Positions 1,859 through 28,090 of a stretch of 64,000 bases of DNA are shown here, in pieces. Position 1 is the first letter of the stretch; every line of letters begins with the position of its first letter. Made by a program: the position numbers and the translations under genes. The stretch covers positions 13,335 through 77,334 of the forward strand of contig JAUNBC010000007.1 in assembly GCA_030527285.1 (NCBI GenBank). The letters run 5' to 3'. The notes under the pieces were generated by a model that was not told the origin of the DNA, ran no database searches, and worked only from the letters and a program-made list of their open reading frames with translations. This DNA is from Bacillota bacterium. Lineage in GTDB: Bacteria > Bacillota > Dehalobacteriia > UBA4068.

Positions 1859-2761
1859 ATGCGACATCTGCCGAATAACACGAACATAGCGGTATTGAGC
1901 CTGCTGTTCATCAGCGTCATTTGGGGCGTGCATTTTGCAATACTGAAGATCATGCTCGAAACGCTGCCGCCATTATGGATGACCGCGCTGCGCTATGGCG
2001 GGGCGGCGCTGCTGTTGGCCGTAGTGCTCAACCGGCGGCTGCGCACGATCGACAGGCCTATGCTGGCCGGCTCGCTGCCAATGCTGCTGTTTCTGGTCGC
2101 CGGTATACTGATACAGGCGGTGGGGCTGCAGTTTACGGCGGCGGGCAACGCCTCGTTCATCCTCAGCACCTATGTGGTGCTGACGCCTTTCGTCGCCTAC
2201 TTTTTTGGCAAAAAACTGCTGGGAGCCAATATTTGGGTGGCGCTGGTAACGCTGTTCGGCCTGTTTCTTTTCTCCTATGACCCAAGCAGCACTCTGACCA
2301 AAGGCGATGCGATGATGCTGGCGGTATCGGTATTCTGGGCGCTGCATATCACCTTTTTAGGGCAGGTGGTGCAAAAGCATGACCCGCTGATCATCGGCTT
2401 TTTGCAAGTGGCGGCGGCCTGCGTATGCTCCCTGGCCGGCGCATTGCTCTTGGAAGAGCTGCCACCGCTGGCGGCGGCGACTCCGCGCCTGCTGTGGTCG
2501 CTGCTGTACAGCGTGGTGCTGGCTACCGCGCTCGGCTTTATCATCCAGCCATGGGCGCAGAAATATGTGGCGGCGGCGCCGGCGGCGGTGTTAATGATGA
2601 GCCAATCGGTATTCGGCGCGGTGGCCGGCTGGGTAATGCTGAACGAAATGTTCAGCACCCGCCAGTATATCGGCGCGGCGGTCATCCTGCTGAGCATCGG
2701 CGCGTCGATACTGATCAACACCAGGCACGCGGCAAAAAAACCGGCCGCTGCGGAAAATTAG
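1859..2761 (+). CDS. EamA/DMT-family permease
   Basis: 300 aa, about 10 hydrophobic segments in two similar halves, typical of the drug/metabolite transporter (EamA) fold. Confidence 0.75.
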   Translation: MRHLPNNTNIAVLSLLFISVIWGVHFAILKIMLETLPPLWMTALRYGGAALLLAVVLNRRLRTIDRPMLAGSLPMLLFLVAGILIQAVGLQFTAAGNASFILSTYVVLTPFVAYFFGKKLLGANIWVALVTLFGLFLFSYDPSSTLTKGDAMMLAVSVFWALHITFLGQVVQKHDPLIIGFLQVAAACVCSLAGALLLEELPPLAAATPRLLWSLLYSVVLATALGFIIQPWAQKYVAAAPAAVLMMSQSVFGAVAGWVMLNEMFSTRQYIGAAVILLSIGASILINTRHAAKKPAAAEN

Positions 2762-2762
2762 C

Positions 2763-2791
2763 TTGCAGTTTACGCCGGTTTGAGATATACT
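2763..2791 (+). promoter_or_regulatory. Sigma-70-type promoter for the tRNA-Gly/tRNA-Arg unit
   Basis: TTGCAG (2763-2768), 17-nt spacer, TATACT (2786-2791), about 17 nt before the tRNA 5' end. Confidence 0.5.
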
Positions 2792-2807
2792 AAGTTCTGC
2801 GTTATCT

Positions 2808-2881
2808 GCGGGTGTAGCTCAATGGCAGAGCTCCAGCCTTCCAAGCTGGCCACGTGGGTTCGATTCCCATCACCCGCTCCA
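2808..2881 (+). tRNA. tRNA-Gly (anticodon UCC), CCA encoded
   Basis: Acceptor GCGGGTG/CACCCGC, D-arm GCTC..GAGC, anticodon stem CCAGC/GCTGG with loop CTTCCAA, T-arm GTGGG-TTCGATT-CCCAT, 3' TCCA. Confidence 0.9.
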
Positions 2882-3233
2882 TATCAAAGCCCCTTCGGGG
2901 CTTTGATATGGAGTACGACCGGTGGTGTCCAAGCTGCGGTTTTGCGCAGCAAAAGCCAGCTTCAGACCATCACCCGCTCTACCTCTGAAGCTCTAAAGAG
3001 GCTTTGATATGGAGTGCGACCGGTAGTGTCCAAGCTGCGGTTTTGCGCAGCAAAAGCCAGCTTCAGACCATCACCCGTTCTACCTCTAAATCTCTAAAGA
3101 GGCTTTGATATGGAGTACGATCGGTAGTGTCTGAGCTGCGGTTTTGCGCAGCAAAAGCCAGCTTCAGACCATCACCCGCTCTACCTCTGAAGCTCTAAAG
3201 AGGCTTTGATATGGAGTATGATCTGAATACTAT
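2867..3233 (+). repeat. Tandem array of 3.6 x ~101-bp units. Each unit is a tRNA-Gly 3' fragment, a small hairpin and a 39-nt bulged palindrome.
   Basis: CCATCACCCGCTC occurs at 2867, 2967, 3068 (one C>T) and 3169. Palindrome cores are at 2928-2966, 3029-3067 and 3130-3168. The array ends at the tRNA-Arg 5' end. Confidence 0.9.
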
Positions 3234-3310
<77 letters not shown>

Positions 3311-3395
3311 AACGTATTAAAATCCGAACGCACCCGCTACATCTTCACCGGCGGCGTGTTCGGGGTCGTGATCAAGCGCTGATCCCGACAGCAGC

Positions 3396-3425
3396 AAAAA
3401 GCAGACGCTCGCCGTCTGCTTTTTC
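3396..3425 (+). terminator. Rho-independent terminator after the tRNA pair
   Basis: AAAAAGCAGACG-CTCGC-CGTCTGCTTTTTC: a GC stem flanked by A and T tracts. Confidence 0.7.
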
Positions 3426-3512
3426 TATTATATTCATCGGCGCTCCCGCCGCACGCGCATCGGCGGCGCTTCGTCCGCTTCCGTCATTTTAGCGCATATT
3501 GCCAGTTTATGC

Positions 3513-3541
3513 TTGCCAAACGCGCCATATCCTGCTATACT
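3513..3541 (+). promoter_or_regulatory. Promoter of the hom-thrB-lysC operon
   Basis: TTGCCA (3513-3518), 17-nt spacer, TATACT (3536-3541). Confidence 0.55.
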
Positions 3542-3584
3542 GAAATGTAATATTTACTCAGATCAGGTAAGGGAGCGGGGCAAA

Positions 3585-4895
3585 ATGAAAAAAGACGCGA
3601 TAAATGTCGGCATCATCGGCGCAGGTACGGTCGGCGGCGGCGCCGCGGCCGTGCTGGTAAGAAACGCCGAGCTGATCGCCCATCGTGCGGCGCCGATACG
3701 TCTGGCCGCCATCGCCGAGCTGGATCGCGCGCGCGGCGAGGCTTTATGCAGCGAGCTGTCTCTGCCCTTCGACATACTGACCGACGATTGGCTTACGCTG
3801 GTCGGCGATCCCGATATCGACATCATCGTGGAGACCATCGGCGGCGTGGAGCTGGCTCATCAGATCATCAGCAGCGCGCTCAAGGCCGGCAAATCGGTAG
3901 TCACCGCCAATAAAGACCTGATGGCTACTCATGGCGGCGAGCTGCTGAATATCGCGGGCGAGATGAAGACCGATCTCTTCTTTGAAGCGGCGGTGGCCGG
4001 CGGCATACCAATCATCCAGTCGGTCAAGGAAGGCTTTGCCGGCAACCGTATCGGCCAGATCATGGGCATCGTCAACGGCACTACCAATTATATATTGACC
4101 AGGATGAGCGAAAGCGGCGCGGATTATGCCGAGGCGCTGGCGGAGGCGCAGGCGCTGGGGTACGCCGAGGCCGATCCTACCTCGGACGTGGCCGGACATG
4201 ACGCCGCGCGCAAGATGGCGATATTAGCTTCCATCGCCTTCAACAGCCGCGTCAGCTTCGATATGGTGCCCTGCGAGGGCATAGACAAGATCTCCGCCTG
4301 GGATATCGCCTATGCCGAGCAATTTGGCTATGCGATCAAGATGCTGGGTATCGCGCGCAGCGACGGGCAGCTCATTGACGTGCGCGTGCATCCGCTGATG
4401 ATATCCAAATCGCATCCGCTGGCGGCGGTGCGCGATTCGTATAACGCCATTTTCGTACAGGGCGACGCGCTGGGCAGCGCCATGCTCTACGGACGCGGCG
4501 CGGGCGCTCTGCCCACCGGCAGCGCCATCGCCGGCGATATCATCAACGCCACGCGCAATATCCTGCATGATTCCAAGGCGCGCTGGGGCTGCACCTGCCA
4601 TTTGGAATTGCCGGTGCTGCCGCTGGACGAAACGCTGAGCAAATACTACGTGCGCATTTGCGTCTTTGACCGCATCGGCGTATTTGCCGAGCTGTCCGAG
4701 GCGCTGACCGCCAATAATATCTCCATGGACTCGGTAATGCAGAAACGCCGTCTGACCGACGATAGAGCCGAGATCGTGCTGATCACCCATCAGGTGCGGC
4801 ATGCCGATATGATGGCGGCGCTGAACGATATCGAGCGGCTGGATTGCGTCTGCGAAGTGTCCGACTACATACGCGTGGAGGATGAAAGCATCTGA
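3585..4895 (+). CDS. hom: Homoserine dehydrogenase
   Basis: An internal Met with an AAGGGAG RBS starts MKKDAINVGIIGAGTVGGG (NAD-binding Rossmann motif). The C-terminal ACT-like region is typical of Hom. The upstream part of track ORF 3513.. is taken as non-coding. Confidence 0.9.
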   Translation: MKKDAINVGIIGAGTVGGGAAAVLVRNAELIAHRAAPIRLAAIAELDRARGEALCSELSLPFDILTDDWLTLVGDPDIDIIVETIGGVELAHQIISSALKAGKSVVTANKDLMATHGGELLNIAGEMKTDLFFEAAVAGGIPIIQSVKEGFAGNRIGQIMGIVNGTTNYILTRMSESGADYAEALAEAQALGYAEADPTSDVAGHDAARKMAILASIAFNSRVSFDMVPCEGIDKISAWDIAYAEQFGYAIKMLGIARSDGQLIDVRVHPLMISKSHPLAAVRDSYNAIFVQGDALGSAMLYGRGAGALPTGSAIAGDIINATRNILHDSKARWGCTCHLELPVLPLDETLSKYYVRICVFDRIGVFAELSEALTANNISMDSVMQKRRLTDDRAEIVLITHQVRHADMMAALNDIERLDCVCEVSDYIRVEDESI

Positions 4896-5809
4896 TGCTA
4901 AAGCTGCGTATTCCGGCCGCCACAGCCAACCTGGGCTGCGGTTATGATACCTTTGGCATGGCGCTCGGCTATTATAACTATCTGGAATTTGCCGAGGCGG
5001 AGCAATATGACCTGCGCATCATCGGCGAGGGCGAGGGGCATCTGCCCCGCAACAACGCCAACTTAGTGGTGCGCGCCGCCGCTGCCGCCTATGAGCTGGC
5101 GGGGCGGAGCATGCCGCCGCTGGCGCTGACAGCGCATAATAACATCCCGCTGTCGCGCGGCATGGGCAGCTCCTCGTCGGCGATCGTGGCCGGCATTATG
5201 GCCGCCAACACGCTGATGGGCGATCCGCTGGACCGGCCGGCGCTGTTAGAGCTGGCGGCCAAGCTCGAGGGGCATCCCGATAACGTCGCGCCGGCCATAT
5301 ACGGCGGCTTCACCATCACCGCCCATGAGGGCGGCCGCCTGTACTGCAAAAAGCTGACGCTGCCGCCGCAGCTGCGCGTACTGCTGGCGATACCCTCCTT
5401 TACCGTAGCGACGAAAAAGGCGCGCGCCATCCTGCCGCGGCAGGTAGCGCTGACCGACGCCGTATTTAATATCTCGCATGCGGCCTATATGGCGGCCGCG
5501 CTGGCCGAGGGCGATATACGCGGCTTCGGCGCGATGCTGTTCGACCGCCTGCATCAGCCCTACCGCTATCAGCTGGTCAGAGGCGCGCAGGACGTAGCCG
5601 ACGCAGCAGTCGCCGCCGGAGCTATCGGCTGCGTCTTATCCGGCTCCGGCCCGACCATGGCCGCCTTTTCCGAGGACGACGAGCCGCTGAACGCCGGTAT
5701 CGCCGCCGCGATGAGCGAGGCTTTTGCACGAAACGGCGTAAGCTGCCGTATGATGATACTGAATACCGATAATCGGGGCGCCGCCCTTATGGAGCAGGAG
5801 GAAGAATAA
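4895..5809 (+). CDS. thrB: Homoserine kinase
   Basis: GHMP-kinase motif PLSRGMGSSSSAIVAG. Start overlaps the hom stop (ATGA-type coupling). Confidence 0.9.
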   Translation: MLKLRIPAATANLGCGYDTFGMALGYYNYLEFAEAEQYDLRIIGEGEGHLPRNNANLVVRAAAAAYELAGRSMPPLALTAHNNIPLSRGMGSSSSAIVAGIMAANTLMGDPLDRPALLELAAKLEGHPDNVAPAIYGGFTITAHEGGRLYCKKLTLPPQLRVLLAIPSFTVATKKARAILPRQVALTDAVFNISHAAYMAAALAEGDIRGFGAMLFDRLHQPYRYQLVRGAQDVADAAVAAGAIGCVLSGSGPTMAAFSEDDEPLNAGIAAAMSEAFARNGVSCRMMILNTDNRGAALMEQEEE

Positions 5810-5813
5810 AACC

Positions 5814-7058
5814 ATGTCTATCGTAGTACAGAAATTCGGCGGCTCCTCCGTGGGCAGTCCGGAACGCATGCGGCGCGTGGCGCGGCGTATCGCCGAGACT
5901 GCGGACGCCGGCAACAAGGTAGCGGTGGTAGTATCGGCAATGGGCGATACCACCGACGATCTGATCGCGCTGGCGCAGCAATTGACCACCCGCCCGCCGG
6001 CGCGGGAAATGGATATGCTGCTCTCCACCGGCGAGCAGATCTCGATCTCGCTGCTGGCGATGACATTGCAGGAGATGGGTTATGCGGCGATATCGCTGAC
6101 CGGCAGGCAGGCCGGTTATCATACCTGCGGTACCTACGCCAAGGCCAAGATCGTCGCCATGGATAGCGTGCGCGTGCTCGATGAGCTGAATAAGGGCAAT
6201 ATCGTCATCGTCGCCGGCTTTCAGGGCACCGACAAGCGCGGCGAGATCAATACGCTGGGACGCGGCGGCTCCGACACCTCGGCGGTAGCGCTGGCGGTGG
6301 CCTTGGAGGCCGACGTATGCGAGATATTCACCGACGTGGACGGCGTATTCACCGCCGACCCGCGCGTGGTGCGCAAGGCGTGGAAAATGCCGGAGATATC
6401 ATACGACGAGATGCTGGAAATGGCGGTGATGGGGGCGCTGGTATTGCAGCCGCGCTCGGTGGAATTAGCCAAGCAATACGGCGTTAAGCTGCACGTGCGC
6501 TCCAGCTTCAATCATAGCGAAGGAACCATTGTCAAGGAGGTAGCCTGCATGTATAAGGATCTGGAAAAGGAATTGGTAGTCAGCGGCGTGGCGCATGATA
6601 TGAACGTGCTGAAAACGACGATTTTCGGCGTGCCCGACAGCCCCGGCGTGGCCGGCGAGATCTTTGGCCGGCTGGCGGCGGAGAAGATCAACGTCGATAT
6701 GATCATTCAAAGCGGCAGCCGCGATACCCGGCAGGATATTTCCTTTACCACCGGCCGCGACGAACGGCATAAGATAGAGCGTATTTTGACCGAGATCGTG
6801 CGGCAGCTGCCGGCGGAGAGCTATATGATCATCGACACCATCGCCAAGGTATCGGTGATCGGCGCAGGCATGATCACCAATCCCGGCGTGGCCGCCACCA
6901 CCTTCCGCACGCTGGCCGGTATCGGCTGCAATATCGACATGATCGCCACCTCGGAGATACGTATTTCCTGCATCATCGACGAGACCAAGGTCACCGAGGC
7001 GGCGCTGGCGCTGCATACGGCTTTTGGCTTAGACGCGGCTCCGGCTATTGACAATTAG
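5814..7058 (+). CDS. lysC: Aspartate kinase with C-terminal ACT domains
   Basis: N-terminus MSIVVQKFGGSSVG, then VVVSAMGDTTD, and two ACT-like repeats at the C-terminus. Confidence 0.9.
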   Translation: MSIVVQKFGGSSVGSPERMRRVARRIAETADAGNKVAVVVSAMGDTTDDLIALAQQLTTRPPAREMDMLLSTGEQISISLLAMTLQEMGYAAISLTGRQAGYHTCGTYAKAKIVAMDSVRVLDELNKGNIVIVAGFQGTDKRGEINTLGRGGSDTSAVALAVALEADVCEIFTDVDGVFTADPRVVRKAWKMPEISYDEMLEMAVMGALVLQPRSVELAKQYGVKLHVRSSFNHSEGTIVKEVACMYKDLEKELVVSGVAHDMNVLKTTIFGVPDSPGVAGEIFGRLAAEKINVDMIIQSGSRDTRQDISFTTGRDERHKIERILTEIVRQLPAESYMIIDTIAKVSVIGAGMITNPGVAATTFRTLAGIGCNIDMIATSEIRISCIIDETKVTEAALALHTAFGLDAAPAIDN

Positions 7059-7076
7059 CGCAAATGCGCTTATAAT
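7048..7076 (+). promoter_or_regulatory. Consensus promoter for tRNA-Pro, embedded in the lysC 3' end
   Basis: TTGACA (7048-7053), 17 nt, TATAAT (7071-7076). Confidence 0.5.
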
Positions 7077-7105
7077 AGGCTTTGCCCGCGTTTAGCGGGC
7101 CTTGT

Positions 7106-7183
7106 CGGGGCGTAGCTCAGTTTGGCTAGAGCGCTACCTTGGGGTGGTAGAGGCCGCACGTTCAAGTCGTGTCGCTCCGACCA
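7106..7183 (+). tRNA. tRNA-Pro (anticodon GGG), CCA encoded
   Basis: Acceptor CGGGGCG/CGCTCCG, anticodon stem CTACC/GGTAG with loop TTGGGGT, T-loop TTCAAGT, 3' ACCA. Confidence 0.9.
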
Positions 7184-7214
7184 GAAAACCAGCATCCTGC
7201 GGATGCTGGTTTTC
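7184..7214 (+). terminator. Rho-independent terminator after tRNA-Pro
   Basis: GAAAACCAGCATCC-TGCG-GATGCTGGTTTTC. Confidence 0.7.
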
Positions 7215-7387
7215 TTTCGCCGCGTATTGAAATAAGCACGCACTAATGATAAGCTATGAAGAGGCATGGGAGGATAAACGACGGAGAAAACGGCATTCTT
7301 CCGCATACCGGCGCATGGGCATAAACAAACACATCTTTGCCTCCGCGCGCATATAATTCTACCACTGATACCGCATAAGGAGCGCTC

Positions 7388-12272: not shown

Positions 12273-12301
12273 TTGACATTTTCCGCGGAATAGGTGATAA
12301 T
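12273..12301 (+). promoter_or_regulatory. Promoter of tRNA-Val
   Basis: TTGACA (12273-12278), 17 nt, GATAAT (12296-12301), 12 nt before the tRNA 5' end. Confidence 0.55.
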
Positions 12302-12313: not shown

Positions 12314-12390
12314 GGGGTTATAGCTCAGTTGGTTAGAGCGCCACGTTGACATCGTGGAGGTCATTGGTTCGAGCCCAACTAACCCCACCA
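12314..12390 (+). tRNA. tRNA-Val (anticodon GAC), CCA encoded
   Basis: Acceptor GGGGTTA/TAACCCC, anticodon stem CCACG/CGTGG with loop TTGACAT, T-loop TTCGAGC, 3' ACCA. Confidence 0.9.
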
Positions 12391-12635
12391 TAATTAAAAC
12401 CGCCCTTGGGGGCGGTTTTAATTATGACTGGATCAGGAGTGCCTGAGCTGCGGCTCTGCGAAGCAAAGGCCAGCTTCAGGCCAACTAACCCCACCAGAAC
12501 ACAAGGCCGCCTGCAAAGGCGGTCTTGTGTTTTACTATAATCAGGAGTGCCTGAGCTGCGACTCTGCGAAGCAAAGGCCAGCTTCAGGCCAACTAACCCC
12601 ACCATAATTAAAACCGCCCTTGGGGGCGGTTTTTC
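12375..12635 (+). repeat. tRNA-Val-linked units: 16-nt tRNA 3' fragment, terminator hairpin and 39-nt bulged palindrome, 2.3 copies
   Basis: CCAACTAACCCCACCA at 12375, 12481 and 12589. Cores at 12442-12480 and 12550-12588. Hairpin A at 12391-12424 and 12605-12635; hairpin B at 12497-12532. Confidence 0.9.
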
Positions 12636-12872
12636 TTTCGCCGCGGATTTGCCGCTTGCGGCAAAAAACGCTATCGGCAACCGCCTCCGGCAAAACGAGG
12701 GCGACGGCGGAACGAGTTGAAACGTCCATAAGCATATGATAAAATACAGTTGAAACAGCGCCGTCCATAAGCATTTGTTAAAAGGATTGTTTATCAGGCG
12801 TCGTATAGATATATGCTTTACCTCTCAGCGAAAAGCAAAAGTGCTATACTGTTTATATAATAAGACAGGGGT

Positions 12873-13088: not shown

Positions 13089-14579
13089 ATGTCGCTGATT
13101 AACGTAGATAATTTGACTTTTGCATATCCGGGAAGCTACGATAATATTTTTGAAAACGTCAGCTTTCAAATCGATACAAACTGGAAACTTGGGTTCATTG
13201 GCAGAAACGGCAGAGGCAAAACGACATTTTTAAACCTGCTTCTTGGAAAATATGAATACAACGGCAGTATTTCAGCCTCGGTCAATTTTGAATATTTTCC
13301 TTATATCGTGGCCGACAATACACGAAACACTATTGATATTATCGAGGGCGTCTGTGCGGGCGTCCTGCACTGGGAGCTGCTGCGCGAGCTGTCCCTGCTT
13401 GATGTTCCGGAGGATGTGTTGCCCCGCCCCTTTTTCACGCTATCCAACGGCGAGCAGACCAAGGTTTTGCTTGCCGTCCTGTTTCTGAAAGAAAATAGCT
13501 TTTTGTTAATCGACGAGCCGACAAATCATCTTGATATTACGGCGCGTTCCATCGTGAGCCGCTATCTGAAAAGCAAAAAGGGATTTATATTAGTATCGCA
13601 TGACAGAGCCTTTTTGGACGGCTGCATAGATCATGTTCTGTCCATCAATAAAGCAAATATTGAAATACAAAGAGGCAATTTTTCCTCCTGGCTGATCAAC
13701 AAGGAGCGGCAAGACAGCTTTGAGCTTGCGGAAAACGAGAGATTAAAAAAAGAGGTGAAGCGACTTCAAAAAACCGTAAGGGAAAAAGCAAATTGGGCGG
13801 ACGCGGCGGAGCGCAAAAAGGTGGGCGTCGATCCAAGCGCGACCGATAATCGCAGTATGGGCAAACGTCCCCTGCAAGGGGCTAAATCCAAAAAGCTCAT
13901 GAAAAAGGCCAAAGCCATTGAAAAACGCCGGGAAGCCGCCGTTGAGGAAAAATCCGGGCAGCTCAAAAACATTGAAAACGCCGACCGTCTGAAAATAGCG
14001 CCGCTTTCTTATTTCACGAGCCGCCTGGCGGAGCTTGCCGACGTTTCTATTTATTATGGCTCCAAAACAGCCTGCGCAGGCGTTAGCTTTACGATAGAAT
14101 ACGGCGACCGCATTGCTCTTACGGGCAAAAACGGAAGCGGGAAATCAAGCGTGCTAAAGCTTATCCGCGGCGAGGATATGATTTATACCGGCACTTTAAA
14201 AAAAGGCAGCCGCCTAATCGTTTCCTATGTTTCACAGGACACTTCATTTTTAAGCGGCAGCCTTTCAGACTACGCTTTGCAAAATGGAATTGAGGAGAGC
14301 CTTTTCAAAGCGACCCTGCGCAAGCTGGATTTTTCAAGGGTGCAATTTGAAAAGGATATGCGCGATTTTAGCGGCGGTCAAAAGAAAAAGGTGCTGCTTG
14401 CAAGAAGCCTTTGCGAAAAGGCCCATCTGTACATTTGGGACGAGCCGTTAAATTACATCGACGTGATCTCCCGTATGCAAATTGAAGATATGATCCTGCA
14501 ATTCAAGCCAACCATTTTGTTTGTCGAGCATGATAGTGCGTTTTGCGGAAAAATCGCAACGAAAGAAGTAAGATTATAG
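13089..14579 (+). CDS. Lsa-type ARE ABC-F ribosomal protection protein (two ABC domains, no TM domain)
   Basis: 496 aa. Motifs DTNWKLGFIGRNGRGKTT, WELLRELSLL, GFILVSHDRAF, FELAENE and LYIWDEPLNY, with a charged inter-domain linker. They align well with my memory of Enterococcus Lsa(A). The gene is AT-richer than the host genes. Confidence 0.8.
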   Translation: MSLINVDNLTFAYPGSYDNIFENVSFQIDTNWKLGFIGRNGRGKTTFLNLLLGKYEYNGSISASVNFEYFPYIVADNTRNTIDIIEGVCAGVLHWELLRELSLLDVPEDVLPRPFFTLSNGEQTKVLLAVLFLKENSFLLIDEPTNHLDITARSIVSRYLKSKKGFILVSHDRAFLDGCIDHVLSINKANIEIQRGNFSSWLINKERQDSFELAENERLKKEVKRLQKTVREKANWADAAERKKVGVDPSATDNRSMGKRPLQGAKSKKLMKKAKAIEKRREAAVEEKSGQLKNIENADRLKIAPLSYFTSRLAELADVSIYYGSKTACAGVSFTIEYGDRIALTGKNGSGKSSVLKLIRGEDMIYTGTLKKGSRLIVSYVSQDTSFLSGSLSDYALQNGIEESLFKATLRKLDFSRVQFEKDMRDFSGGQKKKVLLARSLCEKAHLYIWDEPLNYIDVISRMQIEDMILQFKPTILFVEHDSAFCGKIATKEVRL

Positions 14580-14694
14580 CTTCCCCATATGCGGCGCTGT
14601 ATCTGGCTTCGAGTGGGGCTCCGCCCCCTCGAGGCTCCCCCGGACGGTGCGATACCGTGGTTTAGCATCTGCATCTTTTTGTTGGCACATGACA

Positions 14695-14752
14695 TAATTA
14701 AAACCGCCCTTGGGGGCGGTTTTAATTATGACTGGATCAGAAGTGCCTGAGC
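14695..14752 (+). repeat. Half unit: hairpin A plus spacer plus the first 7 nt of the 39-nt core, no tRNA fragment
   Basis: TAATTAAAACCGCCCTTGGGGGCGGTTTTAATTATGACTGGATCAGAAGTGCCTGAGC matches 12391-12448 almost exactly, then homology stops. Confidence 0.75.
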
Positions 14753-14870
14753 CGCGGCGGCGCTTATGGGCAAGCAGACGGCTTGCCTCTGTCCTTTTGG
14801 ACTGGGGCGCATACCTTTATGTCTGAACGCCGCTATGCGACGCTGGCGCCTGCGCTACACTTCACCGCTT

Positions 14871-18100: not shown

Positions 18101-18117
18101 TATGGTGATTGGCAGCG

Positions 18118-18278
18118 TCTGAGCTGCGGCTCGGCGAAGCAAAGGCCAGCTTCAGGCCAACTAACCCCACCAGAACACAAGGCCGCCTGCAAAGGCGGTC
18201 TTGTGTTTTACTATAATCAGGAGTGCCTGAGCTGCGGCTCTGCGAAGCAAAGGCCAACTTCAGGCCAACCAACCCCGC
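18118..18278 (+). repeat. Distal tRNA-Val-linked units: core, 16-nt fragment, hairpin B, core, degenerate fragment
   Basis: Cores at 18118-18156 and 18226-18264. CCAACTAACCCCACCA at 18157-18172. Hairpin B at 18173-18208. CCAACCAACCCCGC at 18265-18278. Confidence 0.9.
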
Positions 18279-18441
18279 TTCATCGTTTCGCTGGCCAATT
18301 TCTTGCGTTCCGGCGTGTACCGCTTATTCGGTACTTGCTTTGGAAATAGCGACGCCCCATTTGTTTTTCAGTATGCAATACTGTCAAACGAATAGGGCGC
18401 CATTTATCATTTCTTACATATGTTTATTCTCATTAGGTTCG

Positions 18442-19446
18442 CTAAACTCTGATCAGTTTGAGAATATTACCGGTTTTATGAAAATTCAGCGTTTGTATAT
18501 AAAGATTTCCTTGCTCATCGCCGCAGATCCCATGCGCCATCAAAGGAGAATTTTCATAACCAAGCTGCGATACGATATTCATATCCATATCAAGAATAGT
18601 AATACCGCCGTCCACCTCGCCAACGAAAACATTTTCTGTATTGGCCCAAATATCCGCTGGTTTATAAATCAAATCCTTTATCACGGCAAGTAGTTCGCCT
18701 GCGGTAGAAAAAACTTGTATACGGCTGTTTTCCCTATCTGCTAACCACAGGCGCTCCATCCTATCTATCCATAAACCATGGGGCAAACGAAACTCCCCAT
18801 CATTGTTTCCGGGATTGCCCCATGTCTTGGTCAACGTGCCGTCAGCGGAAAACTTGTGTATCGCGGCATTACCATAGCCATCGGCGGCAAAAAAATCTCC
18901 CGTTGATGATTCTATCATTTTAGCCGGTTGATTAAAGGGCGCTCCGGTACGCTTGATAGTTCTTAATCCATCAACTGGAGAAAAAGCAGCGTTAAAATGT
19001 ATGTCGTTCGGTATCCCATATTCCCTTTTGAGCCAAGAACAAACGTCCTGCTCATATCCGGTATCAGAAGGATGATTTATAACGCCAAAATCGCGCAGCA
19101 GTTGGCCATCAGCATCAATTTCACGCACGATATGCCGCTTTTTATCGGTACACAATACCGTGTTGCGCGGCGTAACAAATATTCCGTGCAAATCATCGCT
19201 AAACAAGCCTTGCCCCAAAGACTGCTGATAATTGCCGTTAGCATCAAAGACGATAATCGGATTGTTTATATCGCGAGTTGATACGTACAAATTGCCGCGG
19301 CAATCAAAACAGCCGGAGACTACCGTACTTTTTCTCAGATATTCGGGCCATTTCGCCCAGCCGCAATCCAATTTATAGGAGAAGCCCCTATTACTAAAAA
19401 CCACATCGGCTTCCGCCGTCCGGTATTTATTACCGTATATGTCCAT
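18442..19446 (-). CDS. NHL-repeat six-bladed beta-propeller, peptidyl-alpha-hydroxyglycine alpha-amidating lyase (PAL)-like
   Basis: 334 aa. The stretch GDFFAADGYGNAAIHKFSADGTLTKTWG..GEFRLPHGLWID..LWLADRENSRIQVF parallels, from my memory of rat PAL, GAVFVSDGYCNSRIVQFSPSGKFVTQWG..GQFSVPHSLAL..LCVADRENGRIQCF. Three HG motifs (H87, H223, H305), DGY191 and ADR238EN. Confidence 0.7.
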   Translation of the reverse strand: MDIYGNKYRTAEADVVFSNRGFSYKLDCGWAKWPEYLRKSTVVSGCFDCRGNLYVSTRDINNPIIVFDANGNYQQSLGQGLFSDDLHGIFVTPRNTVLCTDKKRHIVREIDADGQLLRDFGVINHPSDTGYEQDVCSWLKREYGIPNDIHFNAAFSPVDGLRTIKRTGAPFNQPAKMIESSTGDFFAADGYGNAAIHKFSADGTLTKTWGNPGNNDGEFRLPHGLWIDRMERLWLADRENSRIQVFSTAGELLAVIKDLIYKPADIWANTENVFVGEVDGGITILDMDMNIVSQLGYENSPLMAHGICGDEQGNLYIQTLNFHKTGNILKLIRV

Positions 19447-19617
19447 TCACGTGAACCTCCCGCTTGTTTTCACTAAAAAGAAAGGGCGACGCCTATCTGC
19501 GCCACCCTCCTTTTTAGCTCAGACGCCCTGTTCATCCATAATCTGTGCTTTTCTATCCTATGGAAAAAAGAGGGGACGTATTAAATCAATGAATTTCCGC
19601 AAAACCTTACGGCTAAA

Positions 19618-21015
19618 CTATGCTTTCCTGTTTGCCATATGGCTCCATACCGGCTTGCCCCAATGCTTTGTTCCGCTGGCCTCCGGATCGACCACGCCTT
19701 CATCCATTACTACTTTGCCTCTCAGGATAGTGTAATTAAGCTTGCATCCTAAAATGTCGTCATCGTAGATCTTGGTATTGGGTGTAAACTCACAACGCAT
19801 TTGATCGTGCAAATCAAAAATCACCAGATCGCCATCAGAGCCCGGTTGTATAACCCCTTTTTGCGGATAAATATTGAAGCATTTTGCGGGGTTCTCACAA
19901 CATAGCTGAACTACTCTCTCCAGCGTTATACCACGCTCTCCTTTAACTACTTCGTTTATCATCAGCGGCAACCGCAGGTTTATGCCTTGAAACCCTGATA
20001 TACCCAAGAAAATATTTTCGTTACCTCTTTCATTCTCTTCTCTTGTGTCGTCGCCATGATCGCTGCCGATCCAATCGACAGTTCCGTCTAAGACGTATTC
20101 CCATATGGCGTCGATAGTCTCCTGGTTTCGCAGAGGCGGGTTGCATTTTCCGTAAGCCTTATGCTTGACTACTTCTTCTTCTGTTTTGAGAAGATAATGC
20201 GGGCAAGTCTCCAAGAAAACTTTTTTGTTTTTAGCTTTGGCTTCTTTCGCCATTTGCATAGCTTCCGGCGTAGAGATATGAGCCAGAAGCAGGGCGCAAC
20301 CCGTTGCATCGGCAATCGTCATCAGCTTTTGCACTTCCAAGTATTCAGATATGGGCGGTCTGGACAAAGAATGATACTTTCCGTCCACCTTGCCCTCGCT
20401 GATAAACTTGTTTATCAAACTGCTGATTATATCATTGTTCTCCGCGTGCGAAGCCAGCATTAAGCCTGTTTTGGCGATTTCCGTCATACCCACTAACACT
20501 TCATAATCTGTGGACATGGTCAAGCCAGTAAATTCTTTTTCCCTTCCCGGAAGCGGTTCATGCAAAAATGTCTTATATGCTATCGCGCCCGCCTCCGCTA
20601 AGTCAACGATATTTTCGGGAAACTCTCCGCCGGCAGCCCCATAAAACGCATAGTCTACAACGCTACCGCGCTCTTCAACAACTTTAAACCTGTTCAAAAA
20701 GATATCTTTATTATACGGCGGAGGCGAGGAAACCGGATGCTCAAGAATGGTGGTCGTGCCGCCTCTTGCCGCCAACATCGATTCCGAATCCCATTTAGCC
20801 CGTCCCGGAATGGTGGGATCACGAAAATGGACATGGGGATCGATACCGCCAGGGATAACATATTTACCTTCGGCATCGATCGTTTTCTCCGCTTTCGGTA
20901 AACAACCCGGCTCCGTGATCATCGCAAATTTTTCGTCTTTGATGCCAATGTCGACTTTCTTAAATACTCCGCCAACATATGCCGTACCATTAATGACCGC
21001 AAGATCTAATTCCAT
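19618..21015 (-). CDS. Cyclic amidohydrolase (allantoinase/hydantoinase/dihydropyrimidinase family)
   Basis: 465 aa. Metal ligands in family order: HVHFRD, AYKTF (carbamylated Lys), ASHAE, LAHIS, GSDHG. Confidence 0.8.
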   Translation of the reverse strand: MELDLAVINGTAYVGGVFKKVDIGIKDEKFAMITEPGCLPKAEKTIDAEGKYVIPGGIDPHVHFRDPTIPGRAKWDSESMLAARGGTTTILEHPVSSPPPYNKDIFLNRFKVVEERGSVVDYAFYGAAGGEFPENIVDLAEAGAIAYKTFLHEPLPGREKEFTGLTMSTDYEVLVGMTEIAKTGLMLASHAENNDIISSLINKFISEGKVDGKYHSLSRPPISEYLEVQKLMTIADATGCALLLAHISTPEAMQMAKEAKAKNKKVFLETCPHYLLKTEEEVVKHKAYGKCNPPLRNQETIDAIWEYVLDGTVDWIGSDHGDDTREENERGNENIFLGISGFQGINLRLPLMINEVVKGERGITLERVVQLCCENPAKCFNIYPQKGVIQPGSDGDLVIFDLHDQMRCEFTPNTKIYDDDILGCKLNYTILRGKVVMDEGVVDPEASGTKHWGKPVWSHMANRKA

Positions 21016-21057
21016 TTTTGGCCCCCCGATTCATTTGGTTTCTGCAAACAATCTTTG

Positions 21058-22092
21058 CTATTCCGCATTTAATAGATTAACGTATATCTCATACACTTCG
21101 GGGTCAACATTTTCTTCGATCAACGGCCAAGTGGTTTTTGCCAGATCAGCAAAAGCCTGTCTTTGTTCCTCCGTCAGATCAACAAAGATGATGCCTGCTT
21201 CTTCAAGTAATTCTCTGCTTTCCACCAAGCCCGCATCGGCAAATTCCCTTGACCAGTCAAACGCGACAGCGGCGGCTTCGTTCAGCAGCTGTTGAATATC
21301 CGCCGGCAAAGAATTCCAGAATTCCAGATTGATGATAATCGGGCAGGTAAGATGAATATGACTCGTCATGGTCACGTACTTTTGCTGCTCATAATACTTG
21401 TCGAAATAAATCGATTGCAGCGGATTTTCCTGAGCGTCAACAATCCCTTGCTGCAAAGCCACATAAATCTCACTTCCGGGTATCGGCGTCGGGTTGGCGC
21501 CCATAGCCTGCCAGGCCGCTATATGATACTTATTATCCATCGTTCTAAGAGTTAAGCCGTTCAAATCCTCCGGAGTTTCGATCATTATATTTGAGGACAA
21601 TTCTCTAAAATGCCCGTCAGTAATGCCCATCAACTTAATTCCAGCCGCCTCGTATTTCTCGTTGAGGATGGCTAACAATTCCGGATCAGCGATAACTTCT
21701 CTGGCATGTTCAGCGCTCTTATAAGCAAACGCCATGTCAAAGATCGCCAGATCGGGAATGAAGTTAGCCTGCGCCGCGGCAGTACCCACATGCATGGTAA
21801 CGCTGCCAGTCTGAAGCCCCTCGATGATCTCTCTTTCCGAGCCAAGCTGAGCGTTAGGATATACGCTGACTACAACCCGACCATCGGCATGCTCATCAAT
21901 GTATTCCTTAAACTTGATGCAATACTGCGAAACTGTTGTTTCCTCGGCGCTGCCGGTTGCTAAAATCATTTCATATACGGTCGCATCATCTACAACCGCC
22001 TCACCGCTGTCAGCGGGATCGTCTGTGGCGCAAGCTGCAAATACTAACGCGACCAAGACTAAAGCAAATAATAAGCCAATCATTTTTTTCAT
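21058..22092 (-). CDS. dctP: TRAP transporter substrate-binding protein (DctP family), lipoprotein
   Basis: Start MKKMIGLLFALVLVALVFAAC after GGAAGGTG, followed by a DctP-type fold. Track start 22113 is an alternative. Confidence 0.8.
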   Translation of the reverse strand: MKKMIGLLFALVLVALVFAACATDDPADSGEAVVDDATVYEMILATGSAEETTVSQYCIKFKEYIDEHADGRVVVSVYPNAQLGSEREIIEGLQTGSVTMHVGTAAAQANFIPDLAIFDMAFAYKSAEHAREVIADPELLAILNEKYEAAGIKLMGITDGHFRELSSNIMIETPEDLNGLTLRTMDNKYHIAAWQAMGANPTPIPGSEIYVALQQGIVDAQENPLQSIYFDKYYEQQKYVTMTSHIHLTCPIIINLEFWNSLPADIQQLLNEAAAVAFDWSREFADAGLVESRELLEEAGIIFVDLTEEQRQAFADLAKTTWPLIEENVDPEVYEIYVNLLNAE

Positions 22093-22333
22093 TTTTTTCA
22101 CCTTCCCATACATTATTTTTTGATATTCAATACCGTTTTGCGCTTATGCTTCATCGAATAATCATTTTTCATACCTCCCAGCAAAAATTATTATCCAAAA
22201 TACATCCAGTACCATATAGAATATACGTTCGTTGCAAGCATCAGTTATCTACTTAACAACAACTTTTAACCTGTATCATTATTGCGCACGCTGCGAGGAT
22301 TACACTCAGCGTCTAAGCGCCCCTGACGAGAAA

Positions 22334-23623
22334 TCATTTGAGCAGCACTAAGCTTAATTCCGGAATAAATGTTACGATCAGCAACGCCACAATAAATGAA
22401 ATAATAGCCGGTACAGCTTTTTTGGCAATAGACAGCACCGGTACGTCGCTTATCCTGCTTGCCACAAATAAGTTAGCGCCAATGGGCGGTGTAATGAAGC
22501 CTATGGCAAAAGTAATTACCATTACGACGCCAAAGTGAATCGGGTCTATACCTACTGCGTTTACTATTGGCATACAGATCGGCGCAAGGATCATGATCGC
22601 AACCAGGCCATCCATAAGCATACCCACAATCGTGCAGAAGCCAATGAGTATTAAGAACACTCCAACCGGCGTTGATACCATAGACAGCAAAGTTTCTGTT
22701 AATTGCTGCGGCACCTGCATCAAGGTAAGCACTCTCCCGAAAACCAGTCCCGCAGACATTATCACCATTAACGGACCAATAGAGCATATGGAGTCTTTAG
22801 TAACTCGAATAATGTCCTTGATACTTAACGAACGATAAATAAAGCATCCAACTATCAGAGCATAAACAACTGAAACGTCTGCTGCTTCTGTAGGAGTGAC
22901 GATGCCGCCATAAATACCGCCAAGGATTATTACCGGTGATAATAGCGCCCAAAAACTGTTCTTGAACAGCTGCCAGAAGCTCATCTTTCGTAATTCAACG
23001 TAGTTCTCCAGCAGTTTTTCTTTATCTTCGCCCTTTTTCTTGCAATAGTAATAGGCGTACAGCATCATGCACAAACCCATGATTATGCCCGGAATAATAC
23101 CGGCAATAAACAGGTCGCCCACAGACTCCCCTGTCGCAACACCAAAAACGATAAACGGAATGCTTGGGGGAATGATTACCCCCAAAGAACCAGCGACGGC
23201 TACAATGGCAACTACCCAATTCTTTTCGTACCCGAAATTGACCAAAATCGGGATTGTCATAACGCCGACCGCCGCTACTGTAGCCCCTGCGGAACCACAG
23301 ATAGCGCCATAAAACAAACAGGTGGCAATGATCGCTATCGGCAACCCGCCTGTTTTATTACCGGCAAAATATGCAATAAAATCGAATATCTTTTTTGATA
23401 TACCGCTGGCTGCCATCAGGTTTCCGGATAAAACAAAAAGCGGTATTGCAAGCAAGGTGAACGAATCGATACCTGTTATCATACTGCGGAAAACATATAC
23501 GGCGTCAGCTGCAAATGACGGCAGCACCATAGACGGAACCAGCGAAGATAAGGCTATCGAAATACCAATAGGTACTCCCACCAGTAAAGTAATCAAAAAA
23601 ACCGCAAACACATATGCTGTCAC
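22334..23623 (-). CDS. dctM: TRAP transporter large permease (DctM)
   Basis: 429 aa, about 12 TM segments, typical DctM composition. Start abuts the dctQ stop. Confidence 0.85.
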   Translation of the reverse strand: MTAYVFAVFLITLLVGVPIGISIALSSLVPSMVLPSFAADAVYVFRSMITGIDSFTLLAIPLFVLSGNLMAASGISKKIFDFIAYFAGNKTGGLPIAIIATCLFYGAICGSAGATVAAVGVMTIPILVNFGYEKNWVVAIVAVAGSLGVIIPPSIPFIVFGVATGESVGDLFIAGIIPGIIMGLCMMLYAYYYCKKKGEDKEKLLENYVELRKMSFWQLFKNSFWALLSPVIILGGIYGGIVTPTEAADVSVVYALIVGCFIYRSLSIKDIIRVTKDSICSIGPLMVIMSAGLVFGRVLTLMQVPQQLTETLLSMVSTPVGVFLILIGFCTIVGMLMDGLVAIMILAPICMPIVNAVGIDPIHFGVVMVITFAIGFITPPIGANLFVASRISDVPVLSIAKKAVPAIISFIVALLIVTFIPELSLVLLK

Positions 23624-24111
23624 TAATCCGCCCTCCTTTGACTAAATCTATAAAGCTTTTTAATATATTTCTCAATAAATCTGACTAAAGAAAAGAAAAT
23701 CCCCACCAGAAAAGACAAATATACTAAATACATGGGAATACTGAGGGCGGCGCTGGTTTGATTGCTGTTGATTAGATAATTTATCACTTCTATTCCCGGC
23801 TTTATCATATATACGATAAAAACGACAAATAAGATATCGCCAAATATTAATAAGAATTTTTTTGTTTTCGGGAAAAAAGACTCTACTAAATCCAGCCGGA
23901 TGTGAGTGTTGTTATTGATCCCGTAGCTAAGCGCCAAAAAAGAAAACCAAATGAAAATGTATCTCGACAGTTCGTCAGACCAAGATAAAGATGAATGGAA
24001 AACATACCTCATTATGACAGATATGCCCATGATCAATACTATTGCCCATAAGGCGCTGCCCATAATTATCCCTTCAAAATTATCGTCAATCCATTTTAAG
24101 GCTTTTTTCAT
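23623..24111 (-). CDS. dctQ: TRAP transporter small permease (DctQ)
   Basis: Internal start MKKALKWIDDNFEG after AGGAGGAGAAAA. Four TM segments, about 162 aa. Confidence 0.75.
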   Translation of the reverse strand: MKKALKWIDDNFEGIIMGSALWAIVLIMGISVIMRYVFHSSLSWSDELSRYIFIWFSFLALSYGINNNTHIRLDLVESFFPKTKKFLLIFGDILFVVFIVYMIKPGIEVINYLINSNQTSAALSIPMYLVYLSFLVGIFFSLVRFIEKYIKKLYRFSQRRAD

Positions 24112-24193
24112 TTTTCTCCTCCTGTGCTCAGATCCTGTACTCAGATAATAGCCGCCATTATACAATCAGCACGAGAAATAATTCTGGGGTCCA

Positions 24194-25393: not shown

Positions 25394-25530
25394 TTTTCCT
25401 CCTGCTTTCACGGTATGAATGCGCCATCTTTATTTCGAACACAAACCCGGCAGCAATGAAAGAGCAAATAATTATCTTGGTTATTGACGCCTCAGACAAA
25501 CTATCGAATTAAAGACTCCAAATGCCATTA

Positions 25531-26550: not shown

Positions 26551-26603
26551 ACTGTTCTCCCTTTATATTACCTCTGACATAAAACCCGATATCGGTGTCC
26601 AGA

Positions 26604-27791: not shown

Positions 27792-28046
27792 AAGAAACAC
27801 CTCCAAAATAGACGATTTAATCATAGTAAATATACATTTACTGTTATTAAATTATCTATTTCTTCATCTTTGCAAATTCTCCTTCTTTTTCTCAACATTT
27901 TTTGTATTGTGTTTGCCAGTAAGAAAATTACGCGATTGGCACGAAAGCTAAGCGTGTATCAGCATGATCATATATACCTTTTTATTCCGATAGCGTCGGT
28001 TACGCCAATAAACAGTTCACGCTTTGCTCAGCCGGCATTACGCCAT

Positions 28047-28090
28047 AAAAAACAAGTCGGGAAAGCTTTTTTCATCGCTTGCCCGACCGA
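28047..28090 (-). terminator. Terminator after the IclR gene
   Basis: Minus strand: GTCGGGCAAGC-GATGAAAAAA-GCTTTCCCGAC followed by TTGTTTTTT. Confidence 0.5.

Follow-up and report, generated by a model that had tools for sequence, protein, structure and literature searches.

Tandem modules in a Bacillota tRNA-Gly/tRNA-Arg spacer belong to a dispersed palindromic repeat family joined to tRNA 3' ends

A 64-kb stretch of one contig (the window) was analysed from the metagenome-assembled genome (MAG) of a Bacillota bacterium, and the spacer array and repeat family described here are known from this contig. ARAGORN and Rfam place tRNA-Gly(TCC) and tRNA-Arg(TCT) at either end of a spacer filled by 3.2 tandem 101-bp units, each ending in CCATCACCCGYTC (Table 1). 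TRF returned a single array at 2899-3218 with a period of 101, 3.2 copies, 94% matches and zero indels, and a repeat search recovered three 117-nt copies with 96-97% identity. The variants that distinguish the units are distributed as a mosaic. CCATCACCCGCTC occurs at 2867, 2967, 3068 (with one mismatch, CGTTC) and 3169 and at no other site in the 64 kb; 0.17 matches are expected by chance, and 0 of 100 shuffles reached four. These results confirm the initial annotation of the spacer as tandem 101-bp units that each end in a copy of the tRNA-Gly 3' end. The first repeat, which lies inside tRNA-Gly, departs from the other repeats past position 74.

Folding agreed with the proposed anatomy of a unit as tRNA fragment, hairpin and 39-nt bulged palindrome, and all three palindromes (P in Table 1) fold into bulged hairpins. 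Single units fold moderately better than shuffled sequences (z = -1.8 to -2.4, units 2 and 3), and the whole precursor reaches -207 kcal/mol with z = -5.95. GGCTTTGATATGGAGT occurs four times on the + strand and once inverted with one mismatch; the inverted copy is the left arm of the perfect 17-bp hairpin H0, which takes in the CTCCA end of tRNA-Gly. In the Gly array, every tRNA fragment is flanked by a perfect 9-bp inverted repeat, AGCTTCAGA...TCTGAAGCT, which creates mutually exclusive pairings. The array is non-coding, as had been stated, with stop codons in six of six frames and a unit length that is not divisible by 3, and the near-identity of the units throughout agrees with the earlier view that it has no unique spacers. 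A candidate fifth Gly fragment, CACCCGCTaCAT at 3331-3342 past tRNA-Arg, was marginal (54 of 2000 shuffles) and was rejected.

Table 1. Features of the tRNA-Gly/tRNA-Arg array and of the related loci in the 64-kb window.
Feature	Position	Strand	Evidence or remark
Putative promoter-like TTGCAG-17-TATACT 5' of tRNA-Gly	2763-2791	+	read by eye; under promoter-scan threshold (3/6 + 5/6)
tRNA-Gly(TCC), CCA encoded	2808-2881	+	69.7 bits
H0, perfect 17-bp hairpin, left arm from C72-U73-CCA of tRNA-Gly, weak UUUGAUAU tail	2877-2913	+	100% complementary; -32.5 kcal/mol, z = -8.8
Core copy 1: linker ..GTGG-TG, palindrome P 2928-2966, CCA	2914-2969	+	nhmmer 2.9e-18
tRNA-Gly 3' fragment copy 1 (tRNA positions 62-74)	2967-2979	+	sequence match
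h', degenerate hairpin segment; left half unlike H0, holds TCTGAAGCT, the exact complement of the P 3' arm	2980-3014	+	
Core copy 2: ..GTAG-TG, P 3029-3067, CCA	3015-3070	+	
tRNA-Gly 3' fragment copy 2, CGTTC variant	3068-3080	+	
Core copy 3: ..GTAG-TG, P 3130-3168 with family-consensus start TCTGAGCTG, CCA	3116-3171	+	best nhmmer match, 4.6e-20
tRNA-Gly 3' fragment copy 3	3169-3181	+	
Truncated fourth unit: h' and linker start, abuts tRNA-Arg	3182-3233	+	
tRNA-Arg(TCT)	3234-3310	+	ARAGORN, Rfam
Intrinsic terminator of the Gly-array-Arg unit, 12-bp stem and T run	3396-3433	+	
tRNA-Val(GAC)	12314-12390	+	promoter-like TTGACA-17-GATAAT at 12273-12301
Val array, H1 hairpin to H1 terminator with T-tract	12389-12640	+	
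Truncated copy between convergent genes: H1, linker, first ~13 nt of P	14693-14758	+	97% identical to 12389-12454
X locus, no tRNA gene nearby, two cores	18104-18281	+	97.5% identical to 12443-12600 over 158 nt
tRNA-Ser(CGA) locus without P	32796-33349	-	tRNA 33261-33349, then terminator T1

The sole strong terminator (3396-3424) lies past tRNA-Arg, which makes the earlier proposal that the array is co-transcribed with both tRNAs probable on sequence grounds. One promoter-like site occurs within the array; it ends at 3233, too near the tRNA-Arg 5' end (3234) to serve that gene. Expression of tRNA-Arg seems to require read-through from the tRNA-Gly promoter, and the array would thus be carried in the primary transcript as a passenger. 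RNase P cleavage at the tRNA-Arg 5' end and 3' maturation of tRNA-Gly would cut the array off as a highly structured by-product of ~350 nt, comparable to the rtT RNA of Escherichia coli. The suggestion that RNase P/Z releases ~100-nt units was not supported: the units lack a tRNA-like fold at E <= 10, and no CCA follows the fragment. The absence of a tRNA match in the units at this threshold also led us to reject an array of tRNA pseudogenes. Rfam cmscan of positions 2600-3600 at E <= 10 returned the two tRNAs and noise, with no rtT match, and a gathering-level Rfam scan of the whole window returned tRNAs only.

The palindromes belong to a repeat family with a conserved core of ~56 nt, which consists of an unpaired G-N-R-G tag plus YG, the 39-nt bulged palindrome and CCA, and whose pattern was written as GCTGCGNNNNNGCNNAGCAAANGCCANCTTCAG. 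Eight core copies, seven of them full and one truncated, occur at four loci in the window, where zero are expected by chance; all are on the + strand, and every copy is oriented head-to-tail. Gly-type cores share 83-85% identity with Val-type cores over ~53 nt, and their flanking hairpins are unrelated. The P hairpin has 16 pairs in 39 nt, and 91.7% of cells are paired across copies. Between the Gly and Val types, two pairs have both partners altered, which represents one Gly/Val split and effectively two events. This pairing pattern indicates that the P hairpin is maintained across the core copies. The tags of the Gly copies are GTGG (one) and GTAG (two), and the others are GGAG (three) and GCAG (one), thus three of seven fit GT[AG]G. 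CCA directly follows P in all seven cores, yet it cannot be told apart from the first bases of the tRNA T-stem strand.

Membership in this family changes how the units are read. The start of the palindrome in units 1 and 2 had been described as identical to part of the tRNA-Gly anticodon arm; the palindrome does not derive from that arm and is a member of a family with the consensus start YCTGAGCTG, from which TCCAAGCTG differs by two substitutions that weaken the stem. The match of TCCAAGCTG to tRNA-Gly over 9 nt is marginal (16 of 2000 shuffles). The linker plus palindrome was also considered as a decayed tRNA 3' half and rejected, since Val alignments are no better than shuffles and Gly aligns only at this 9-mer. 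The pairing of GGTGGTG with CATCACC that was thought to lock the tRNA-derived strand into a stem is not conserved, and Val-type copies set GGAGTG against CCAACTAA, which is non-complementary. The resemblance of unit 3 to the tRNA-Val copies stands; what had been missed is its consequence, that the module occurs elsewhere with the 3' end of another tRNA.

The core is always located just 3' of a terminator-type hairpin, and its 3' end abuts a tRNA fragment at the T-loop/T-stem boundary. The joined fragments are the last 13-16 nt of a nearby tRNA, and all tRNA 3' fragments (Gly, Val and Ser) begin at tRNA positions 59-62 and stop at 74-76. Fragment identity follows the nearest tRNA gene: the Gly 3' end is present at 2967, 3068 and 3169, and that of Val at 12481, 12589 and 18157 and, in degenerate form, at 18265. 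Counted as direct repeats of a tRNA 3' end with one member inside the intact gene, there are three for Gly, four for Val and one for Ser. The Val array runs H1, core (P 12442-12480), Val fragment (12481-12496) and H2, followed by core (P 12550-12588), Val fragment (12589-12604) and the H1 terminator, and a 48-nt direct repeat pairs 12372-12419 with 12586-12633. The X locus has its cores ~5.8 kb from tRNA-Val in the order core (P 18118-18156), Val fragment (18157-18172), H2, core (P 18226-18264) and degenerate Val fragment; the period is 108 bp at both loci. The tRNA-Ser locus has a 17-nt copy of the tRNA-Ser 3' end at 33070-33086 with a second terminator after it, and an exact 53-nt copy of T1 at 32796-32848. 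The presence of the module with another tRNA's 3' end, after terminator-like hairpins and between convergent genes points to an origin at the DNA level.

These loci coincide with changes in base composition. The window backbone has a GC content of ~0.58-0.65. The segment at 12.64-14.69 kb has a GC content of ~0.47, contains an ABC-F gene and has H1 copies on both flanks. The segment at 18.28-32.80 kb (GC 0.37-0.47) extends from immediately past the final Val fragment to the exact 53-nt copy of the tRNA-Ser terminator. Inserted segments are flanked by direct repeats of 48, 53 and 158 nt. Foreign-composition DNA borders the Val/X and Ser loci, and the Gly units carry no cargo. By position and composition, the modules mark the borders of inserted DNA. 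The window has 53 ORFs of at least 90 aa, and a Pfam scan of 49 of these found no integrase, transposase, RAYT, TnpB or Cas gene; IscB, Cas12k and Tn7-type genes were also absent from the window. The nearest hom and gatB homologues in relatives are only 69-72% identical. Relatives have his genes or spoIVA 5' of hom and no tRNA-Ser after gatB, and the synteny common to them is hom-thrB-lysC-tRNA-Pro only.

A pattern of the core with 24 specified bases had 0 matches in JGI metagenomes and IMG/VR, and a core search of phages and plasmids matched nothing relevant. A search of genome contigs with the 15-mer GGCTTTGATATGGAG gave, among the matches listed, chance single matches only, and BLAST and nhmmer searches there found nothing related. 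The antisense open frame over the Val array was searched as a spurious ORF in other genomes and had no scoring match.

Logan contigs, an independent assembly of the same run (SRR24915838), end at ~2837 and resume at ~3412, flanking the Gly array on both sides, so the copy number comes from a single assembly. This break, the MAG source and a 101-bp period near a common read length would fit a mis-assembly of the repeat, or of strain variants in the metagenome, as the source of the tandem copies or their number. We consider such an artefact very unlikely. The differences between Gly units are scattered and the longest identical stretch is ~50 nt, so ordinary k-mers are able to order the units. 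The same architecture is found at two further loci with a 108-bp period, and the contig is unbroken across the conserved operons to either side.

The nearest known parallel is the E. coli tyrT/tyrV repeat (rttR/rtT RNA, tpr), which has the same layout without sequence or Rfam homology. Both consist of tandem units in a tRNA operon that each end in a tRNA 3'-end copy, and in both a unit also occupies the stretch separating two tRNA genes; the E. coli repeat is 178 bp x 3.1 at 95% compared to 101 bp x 3.2 at 94% for the Gly array. The E. coli unit ends in AATCCTTCCCCCACCACCA, has an upstream complementary stretch, GGGGAAGGAT, and contains internal palindromes, as in the Gly array. It yields a processed RNA (rtT), to which the Gly array has no sequence or covariance-model similarity (E <= 10). 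The E. coli unit retains a variable-arm/T-arm remnant, whereas the Gly unit is tRNA-derived in its last 13 nt only. The Gly array further differs in that its non-tRNA core is common to arrays with another tRNA's 3' end and to a tRNA-less locus; to our knowledge, a core common to the arrays of different tRNAs is not known for tyrT. A further E. coli comparison is the 3' external transcribed spacer of leuZ, which is an sRNA sponge. By analogy, the Gly array may likewise give a non-tRNA RNA from a tRNA operon via tRNA processing; unlike it, spacers of the leuZ type are short and unique with defined sRNA-pairing sites.

Attachment-site scars offer a DNA-level comparison. Elements flanked by att sites but lacking an integrase are known (CIMEs, accretion), and integrases typically recognise a single tRNA. 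Element integration leaves partial tRNA copies as a pervasive outcome (PMC9897764). The modules share with att scars the direct repeats of a tRNA 3' part with one copy in the intact gene, the serial arrangement and, around the Val/X and Ser loci, foreign-composition DNA between or beside the repeats. They differ in that no recombinase gene lies in the 64 kb, the 101-bp Gly units are cargo-less, one non-tRNA arm is joined to two tRNAs, and the identity block begins after the T-loop, excluding it. REP sequences provide a second comparison, although we know of none joined to tRNA 3' ends. REPs have a GTAG tag and a CCA tail, and the survey that describes them makes no mention of Firmicutes (PMC3733652). 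The core resembles the GTAG/CGTC superfamilies as an extragenic imperfect palindrome of ~40 nt that is clustered and 3' of genes; an unpaired GTAG or GTGG tag precedes it in the three Gly copies, and the CCA that follows P in all seven overlaps the tRNA fragment. REP stems are 5-13 bp compared to 16 bp with bulges in the core, four of seven core tags are GGAG or GCAG, and the window has no RAYT gene. REPs are many and dispersed, mostly as head-to-head or tail-to-tail dimers, whereas the core copies are head-to-tail at four loci only. CRISPR and type III toxin-antitoxin RNA repeats were rejected on the near-identical units, the downstream tRNA and the absence of cas or toxin families (Pfam, window). 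Group II intron domain V, integron attC, a casposon or MITE with TSD, and CAST/TnpB guides were rejected for want of matching ends, Rfam matches or genes, and on the departure of the repeat inside the tRNA from the other repeats past position 74.

We judge it probable, if not strongly so, that the Gly-Arg array represents a single locus within a small, dispersed family of DNA repeats, a recombination module at tRNA 3' ends that was locally amplified and is transcribed as a passenger, and is no purpose-built RNA gene. The modules would arise through recombination at tRNA 3' ends, either by site-specific integration or accretion that leaves att-like scars or through cleavage and joining by a hairpin-recognising REP/RAYT-type enzyme; both routes are compatible with the data. 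Unequal crossing-over or replication slippage between direct repeats may then have raised the cargo-less module to 3.2 copies. Several observations were counted against this explanation. The 101-bp units are far below the size of an element, and the same core is found at two tRNA types, contrary to the one-tRNA specificity of typical integrases. No recombinase or transposase gene was among the 49 ORFs scanned, all copies run head-to-tail, three of seven tags fit GT[AG]G, CCA merges with the tRNA fragment, the compensatory changes amount to two events, and all of the evidence comes from one MAG contig. A functional structured spacer RNA in the rtT or tRNA-spacer sponge sense, selected for the action of the transcript, is unlikely. 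Such a transcript would buffer or pace the maturation of tRNA-Gly/Arg, titrate an RNA or a protein, or display the strand derived from the tRNA. The spacer would have to be transcribed for tRNA-Arg production, and the folding of the whole precursor, the compensatory changes in P, the mutually exclusive pairings around each Gly fragment and the rtT precedent are as expected of such an RNA. The module is also found after the tRNA-Val terminator-like hairpins and between convergent genes far from tRNAs, which argues against a role in tRNA processing. The pairing of 5' flank and fragment is absent from Val-type copies, single units only moderately outperform their shuffles, no Rfam family matches at E <= 10, and the core is absent from the JGI metagenome, IMG/VR, phage and plasmid searches.

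Local slippage, with the array as a strain-private tandem duplication of the tRNA-Gly trailer and the Val resemblance as one chance transfer of the palindrome, is improbable. Hairpins and short direct repeats are classic slippage substrates, and the array has hairpins and 13-nt direct repeats, units 94-97% identical with zero indels, and the mosaic variants that unequal exchange predicts. Slippage leaves unexplained why the palindrome has the same T-loop/T-stem joint for two tRNAs, why tRNA-Ser has a 3'-end copy, and why the modules coincide with compositional borders. We give equally little credence to the idea that the core is the recognition hairpin of an HUH/RAYT-like or integrase-like recombinase that joins DNA to the T-loop/T-stem boundary of several tRNAs. 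If it were, tRNA 3' ends would be a cassette-accretion platform in this Bacillota lineage with the 101-bp units as empty cassettes, and the repeats would be a REP-like family targeting tRNA ends. Modules that pair a hairpin with a 13-16-nt tRNA-end 'guide', in the style of TnpB/IscB omega-RNA or type V-K homing crRNA, are extremely unlikely. The hairpin, tRNA match and terminator do resemble a scaffold-guide-terminator layout, and the two copies of one pair are separated from their tRNA by kilobases and are located at the far end of inserted DNA. Known guide-RNA scaffolds are much longer than the ~56-nt core, the 'guides' within one array are all identical, and there is no Rfam match and no TnpB, IscB, Cas12k or Tn7-type gene in the window.

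Repeats with tRNA 3' ends located downstream of tRNA genes have been on record since E. coli tyrT, and the same architecture is now found in an unrelated Bacillota lineage. The new twist is that one palindromic core is attached at the same joint to two different tRNA tails and sits at foreign-DNA borders, an arrangement that would tie tyrT-type arrays to recombination at tRNA genes. Annotation of tRNAs, delimitation of islands and assembly are all likely to be confused by arrays of this kind. Two unrelated metagenome contigs have analogous single units, which were counted for the repeat/recombination reading. One (L136) has tRNA-Gly(TCC), hairpins and a T-arm plus 3'-end copy, then tRNA-Arg(TCT), and the other (L137) has tRNA-Gly(CCC), two hairpins and ACATCACCCGCTC, then a terminator.

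The spacer between tRNA-Gly(TCC) and tRNA-Arg(TCT) holds one strong tandem array with a period of 101, 3.2 copies, 94% matches and 0 indels (Tandem Repeats Finder). The 13-mer CCATCACCCGCTC corresponds to tRNA-Gly positions 62-74; it spans the 3' strand of the acceptor stem and part of that of the T-stem, together with the discriminator and the first C of CCA. Only four sites in the window carry it, 2867, 2967, 3068 (as a CGTTC variant) and 3169, with 0.17 occurrences expected. These results bear out the initial annotation of tandem 101-bp units ending in copies of the tRNA-Gly 3' end, and the array is non-coding, as was also proposed. Every unit contains GGCTTTGATATGGAGT and a 39-nt bulged palindrome. 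A perfect 17-bp hairpin (H0) directly 3' of the true tRNA-Gly takes in its CTCCA end, and its left half is swapped for unrelated sequence in the later units. The source is a MAG contig. In the Logan contigs of run SRR24915838, an independent assembly of the same run, one contig stops inside tRNA-Gly (~2837) and the next starts inside the terminator after tRNA-Arg (~3412), and the array region is absent.

Self-comparison of the window showed that the palindrome is not confined to this spacer. Eight copies, seven of them full and one truncated, were located with an nhmmer profile and a degenerate pattern, and all are on the + strand. The conserved core (~56 nt) consists of a short linker, the palindrome and CCA, and Gly-type and Val-type cores are 83-85% identical. 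The hairpins on its 5' side (H0 or its degenerate counterpart h' in later Gly units, H1 and H2 of the tRNA-Val array, or a gene's own terminator) share no sequence relation. The decisive observation is that the sequence 3' of the core differs by locus: the tRNA-Gly 3' end follows it in the Gly array, and the 3'-terminal 16 nt of tRNA-Val (CCAACTAACCCCACCA) follow it in the Val and 18-kb copies. Every tRNA fragment starts within tRNA positions 59-62 and ends within 74-76. The Gly array is a member of a dispersed palindrome-plus-tRNA-tail family. No 3'-end copies of tRNA-Arg or tRNA-Pro were found in the window. tRNA-Ser(CGA) has no palindrome, and its own 3' end is copied ~175 nt downstream.

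Positions of the tRNA-associated repeats and neighboring segments in the window
Feature	Position	Strand	Description
tRNA-Gly(TCC)	2808-2881		ARAGORN and Rfam
Hairpin H0	2877-2913
Tandem array	2899-3218
tRNA-Arg(TCT)	3234-3310		ARAGORN and Rfam
Terminator	3396-3424		sole strong terminator of the Gly-Arg unit
Core copies, Gly array		+	n = 3
Core copies after tRNA-Val(GAC)	palindromes 12442-12480, 12550-12588	+
Low-GC segment	12.64-14.69 kb		~0.47 GC; ABC-F-type ATPase gene (13089-14579); H1 copies on both flanks
Truncated core copy	14693-14758	+
Core copies, 18-kb locus	palindromes 18118-18156, 18226-18264	+	without tRNA gene
Low-GC block	18282-32795 (14.5 kb)		0.37-0.47 GC; left edge, last tRNA-Val fragment; right edge, exact tRNA-Ser terminator copy
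tRNA-Ser locus	32796-33349	minus	tRNA, terminator, ~150 nt with further palindromes and tRNA-like scraps (e.g. GCGGCGTAGCTC), 17-nt 3'-end copy and second terminator, 53-nt exact duplicate of first terminator
tRNA-Ser(CGA)	33261-33349	minus

The palindrome folds as a 16-pair hairpin with bulges, and 91.7% of cells are paired over six distinct palindrome sequences. Pairs 1-39 and 13-27 switch between U-A and C-G from the Gly to the Val type, which is evidence, from one lineage split, that the hairpin is kept. Palindromes of the family begin with the consensus YCTGAGCTG; Gly units 1-2 have the derived variant TCCAAGCTG, which makes the stem weaker. The TCCAAGCTG start had been equated with the tRNA-Gly anticodon arm; the identity is marginal (16/2000 shuffles) and, because TCCAAGCTG is derived, would most simply be coincidence or micro-conversion. 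The complementarity of GGTGGTG to CATCACC in the tRNA fragment, also noted initially, is real in the Gly units but missing from the Val-type units. TCTGAAGCT, private to Gly units, lies directly after the first and third fragment copies (at 2984 and 3186) and is the exact complement of the palindrome 3' arm. In the Gly array alone, a perfect 9-bp inverted repeat, AGCTTCAGA / TCTGAAGCT, encloses the 17 nt of the fragment and TACC (2958-2992 and 3160-3194); the middle unit has a degenerate form, TCTAAATCT. Because of this complementarity, a 9-bp stem could loop out the fragment as an alternative to the palindrome, in competition with the palindrome's own 5' arm.

A promoter-like site was read by eye upstream of tRNA-Gly. 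One promoter-like match within the array ends at 3233, 1 base before the tRNA-Arg 5' end, and therefore cannot serve tRNA-Arg. With no usable promoter in the array and the only strong terminator after tRNA-Arg, this gene probably relies on read-through across the array. The Val copies, in contrast, are located beyond the terminator-like hairpins (H1 and H2) that come after tRNA-Val; by direct reading their array closes with H1 and a TTTTTCTTT tract, a site that the rule of the terminator scan does not flag. Convergent genes flank the copies at 14.7 kb and 18.1 kb.

The composition of the window is strikingly mosaic, with a backbone GC of ~0.58-0.65. The H1 copies around the ABC-F-type gene are 100% identical (12603-12633 and 14693-14723), and the second runs on into the truncated core (to 14758). 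The 14.5-kb block encodes an NHL-repeat protein, an amidohydrolase, a TRAP transporter (DctPQM), an M20 peptidase, two aminotransferases, an IclR regulator and an XRE-type HTH protein; several of its proteins had no Pfam match and no integrase was found in it. Lying between the convergent genes for tRNA-Val and tRNA-Ser, the block probably represents a genomic island. Inserted stretches are flanked by direct repeats of 48, 53 and 158 nt. The window has 53 ORFs with a length of 90 aa or more, and the 49 that were scanned against Pfam gave no match to any integrase, transposase, RAYT, TnpB or Cas family.

Single-unit versions occur on two metagenome contigs, in unrelated organisms, so the tRNA-end repeat phenomenon recurs. 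L136 (10505-10830) carries tRNA-Gly(TCC), two hairpins, a copy of the T-arm and 3' end (19-nt direct repeat CCATCACCCGCTCCATTAC) and tRNA-Arg(TCT)-His-Gln-Lys; L137 (468-720) carries tRNA-Gly(CCC), two hairpins, the second abutting ACATCACCCGCTC, and a terminator. Searches of JGI metagenomes, IMG/VR, plasmids and phages gave no match to the core. In the relatives closest at the protein level (69-72% identity), synteny is absent at the Gly and Ser loci. These relatives keep hom-thrB-lysC followed by tRNA-Pro(GGG) (window 3585-7183), with the sequenced 3' part of tRNA-Pro identical, whereas upstream of hom they have the his operon or spoIVA where the window has EamA, tRNA-Gly, the array and tRNA-Arg.

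In Escherichia coli K-12 tyrT-tyrV, 178-bp repeats (x3.1) each close with the tRNA-Tyr 3' end, carry a complement of this fragment further upstream and have internal palindromes. The spacer separating the two tRNA genes is occupied by one unit, and the locus is annotated with rttR/rtT RNA and tpr. These repeats and the Gly array are the same kind of object without homology, as the rtT model has no match at the Gly array. The Gly array is tyrT-like as a tRNA-end repeat array, and we tie it to recombination at tRNA genes, which revises the earlier interpretation in part.

We infer that the core-fragment module arose by DNA recombination at tRNA 3' ends because one core joins the tails of two tRNAs at the same boundary, occurs where tRNA processing is unneeded and coincides with insertion borders. 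Partial tRNA copies are a textbook footprint of element integration (PMC9897764). The enzyme would be integrase-type or hairpin-recognizing (RAYT-like), and the tiny units, the head-to-tail orientation of all copies and the two tRNA targets keep either model from fitting perfectly; neither gene is in the window. REP elements share the layout of the core, with an unpaired tag and a stem-loop that has a CCA tail (PMC3733652); the three Gly copies of the core have GTAG or GTGG as the tag, and the other copies GGAG or GCAG. There is a small chance that the family reveals a REP-like system targeting tRNA ends. The 3.2-copy Gly array would be a secondary amplification of a cargo-less module, produced when its direct repeats underwent slippage or unequal exchange; the mosaic of variants among the units fits this. 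It is possible that the array RNA has a function of its own, since the whole precursor folds well (z -5.95). Most economically, the RNA would be a passenger, removed when RNase P cleaves at tRNA-Arg and the 3' end of tRNA-Gly matures.

After tRNA-Arg, 3331-3375 reads CACCCGCTaCAT then TTCGGGG..TGAT, a marginal likeness to the tRNA-Gly 3' end plus H0 (54/2000 shuffles) that may be an older, decayed copy bracketing tRNA-Arg. Trailers of different tRNA genes have sequence in common: the T-tract and tail of the tRNA-Pro terminator (GTTTTCTTTCGCCGCG, 7209-7224) recur with one mismatch at 12630-12645, past the final hairpin of the tRNA-Val array, with 0 expected by chance.
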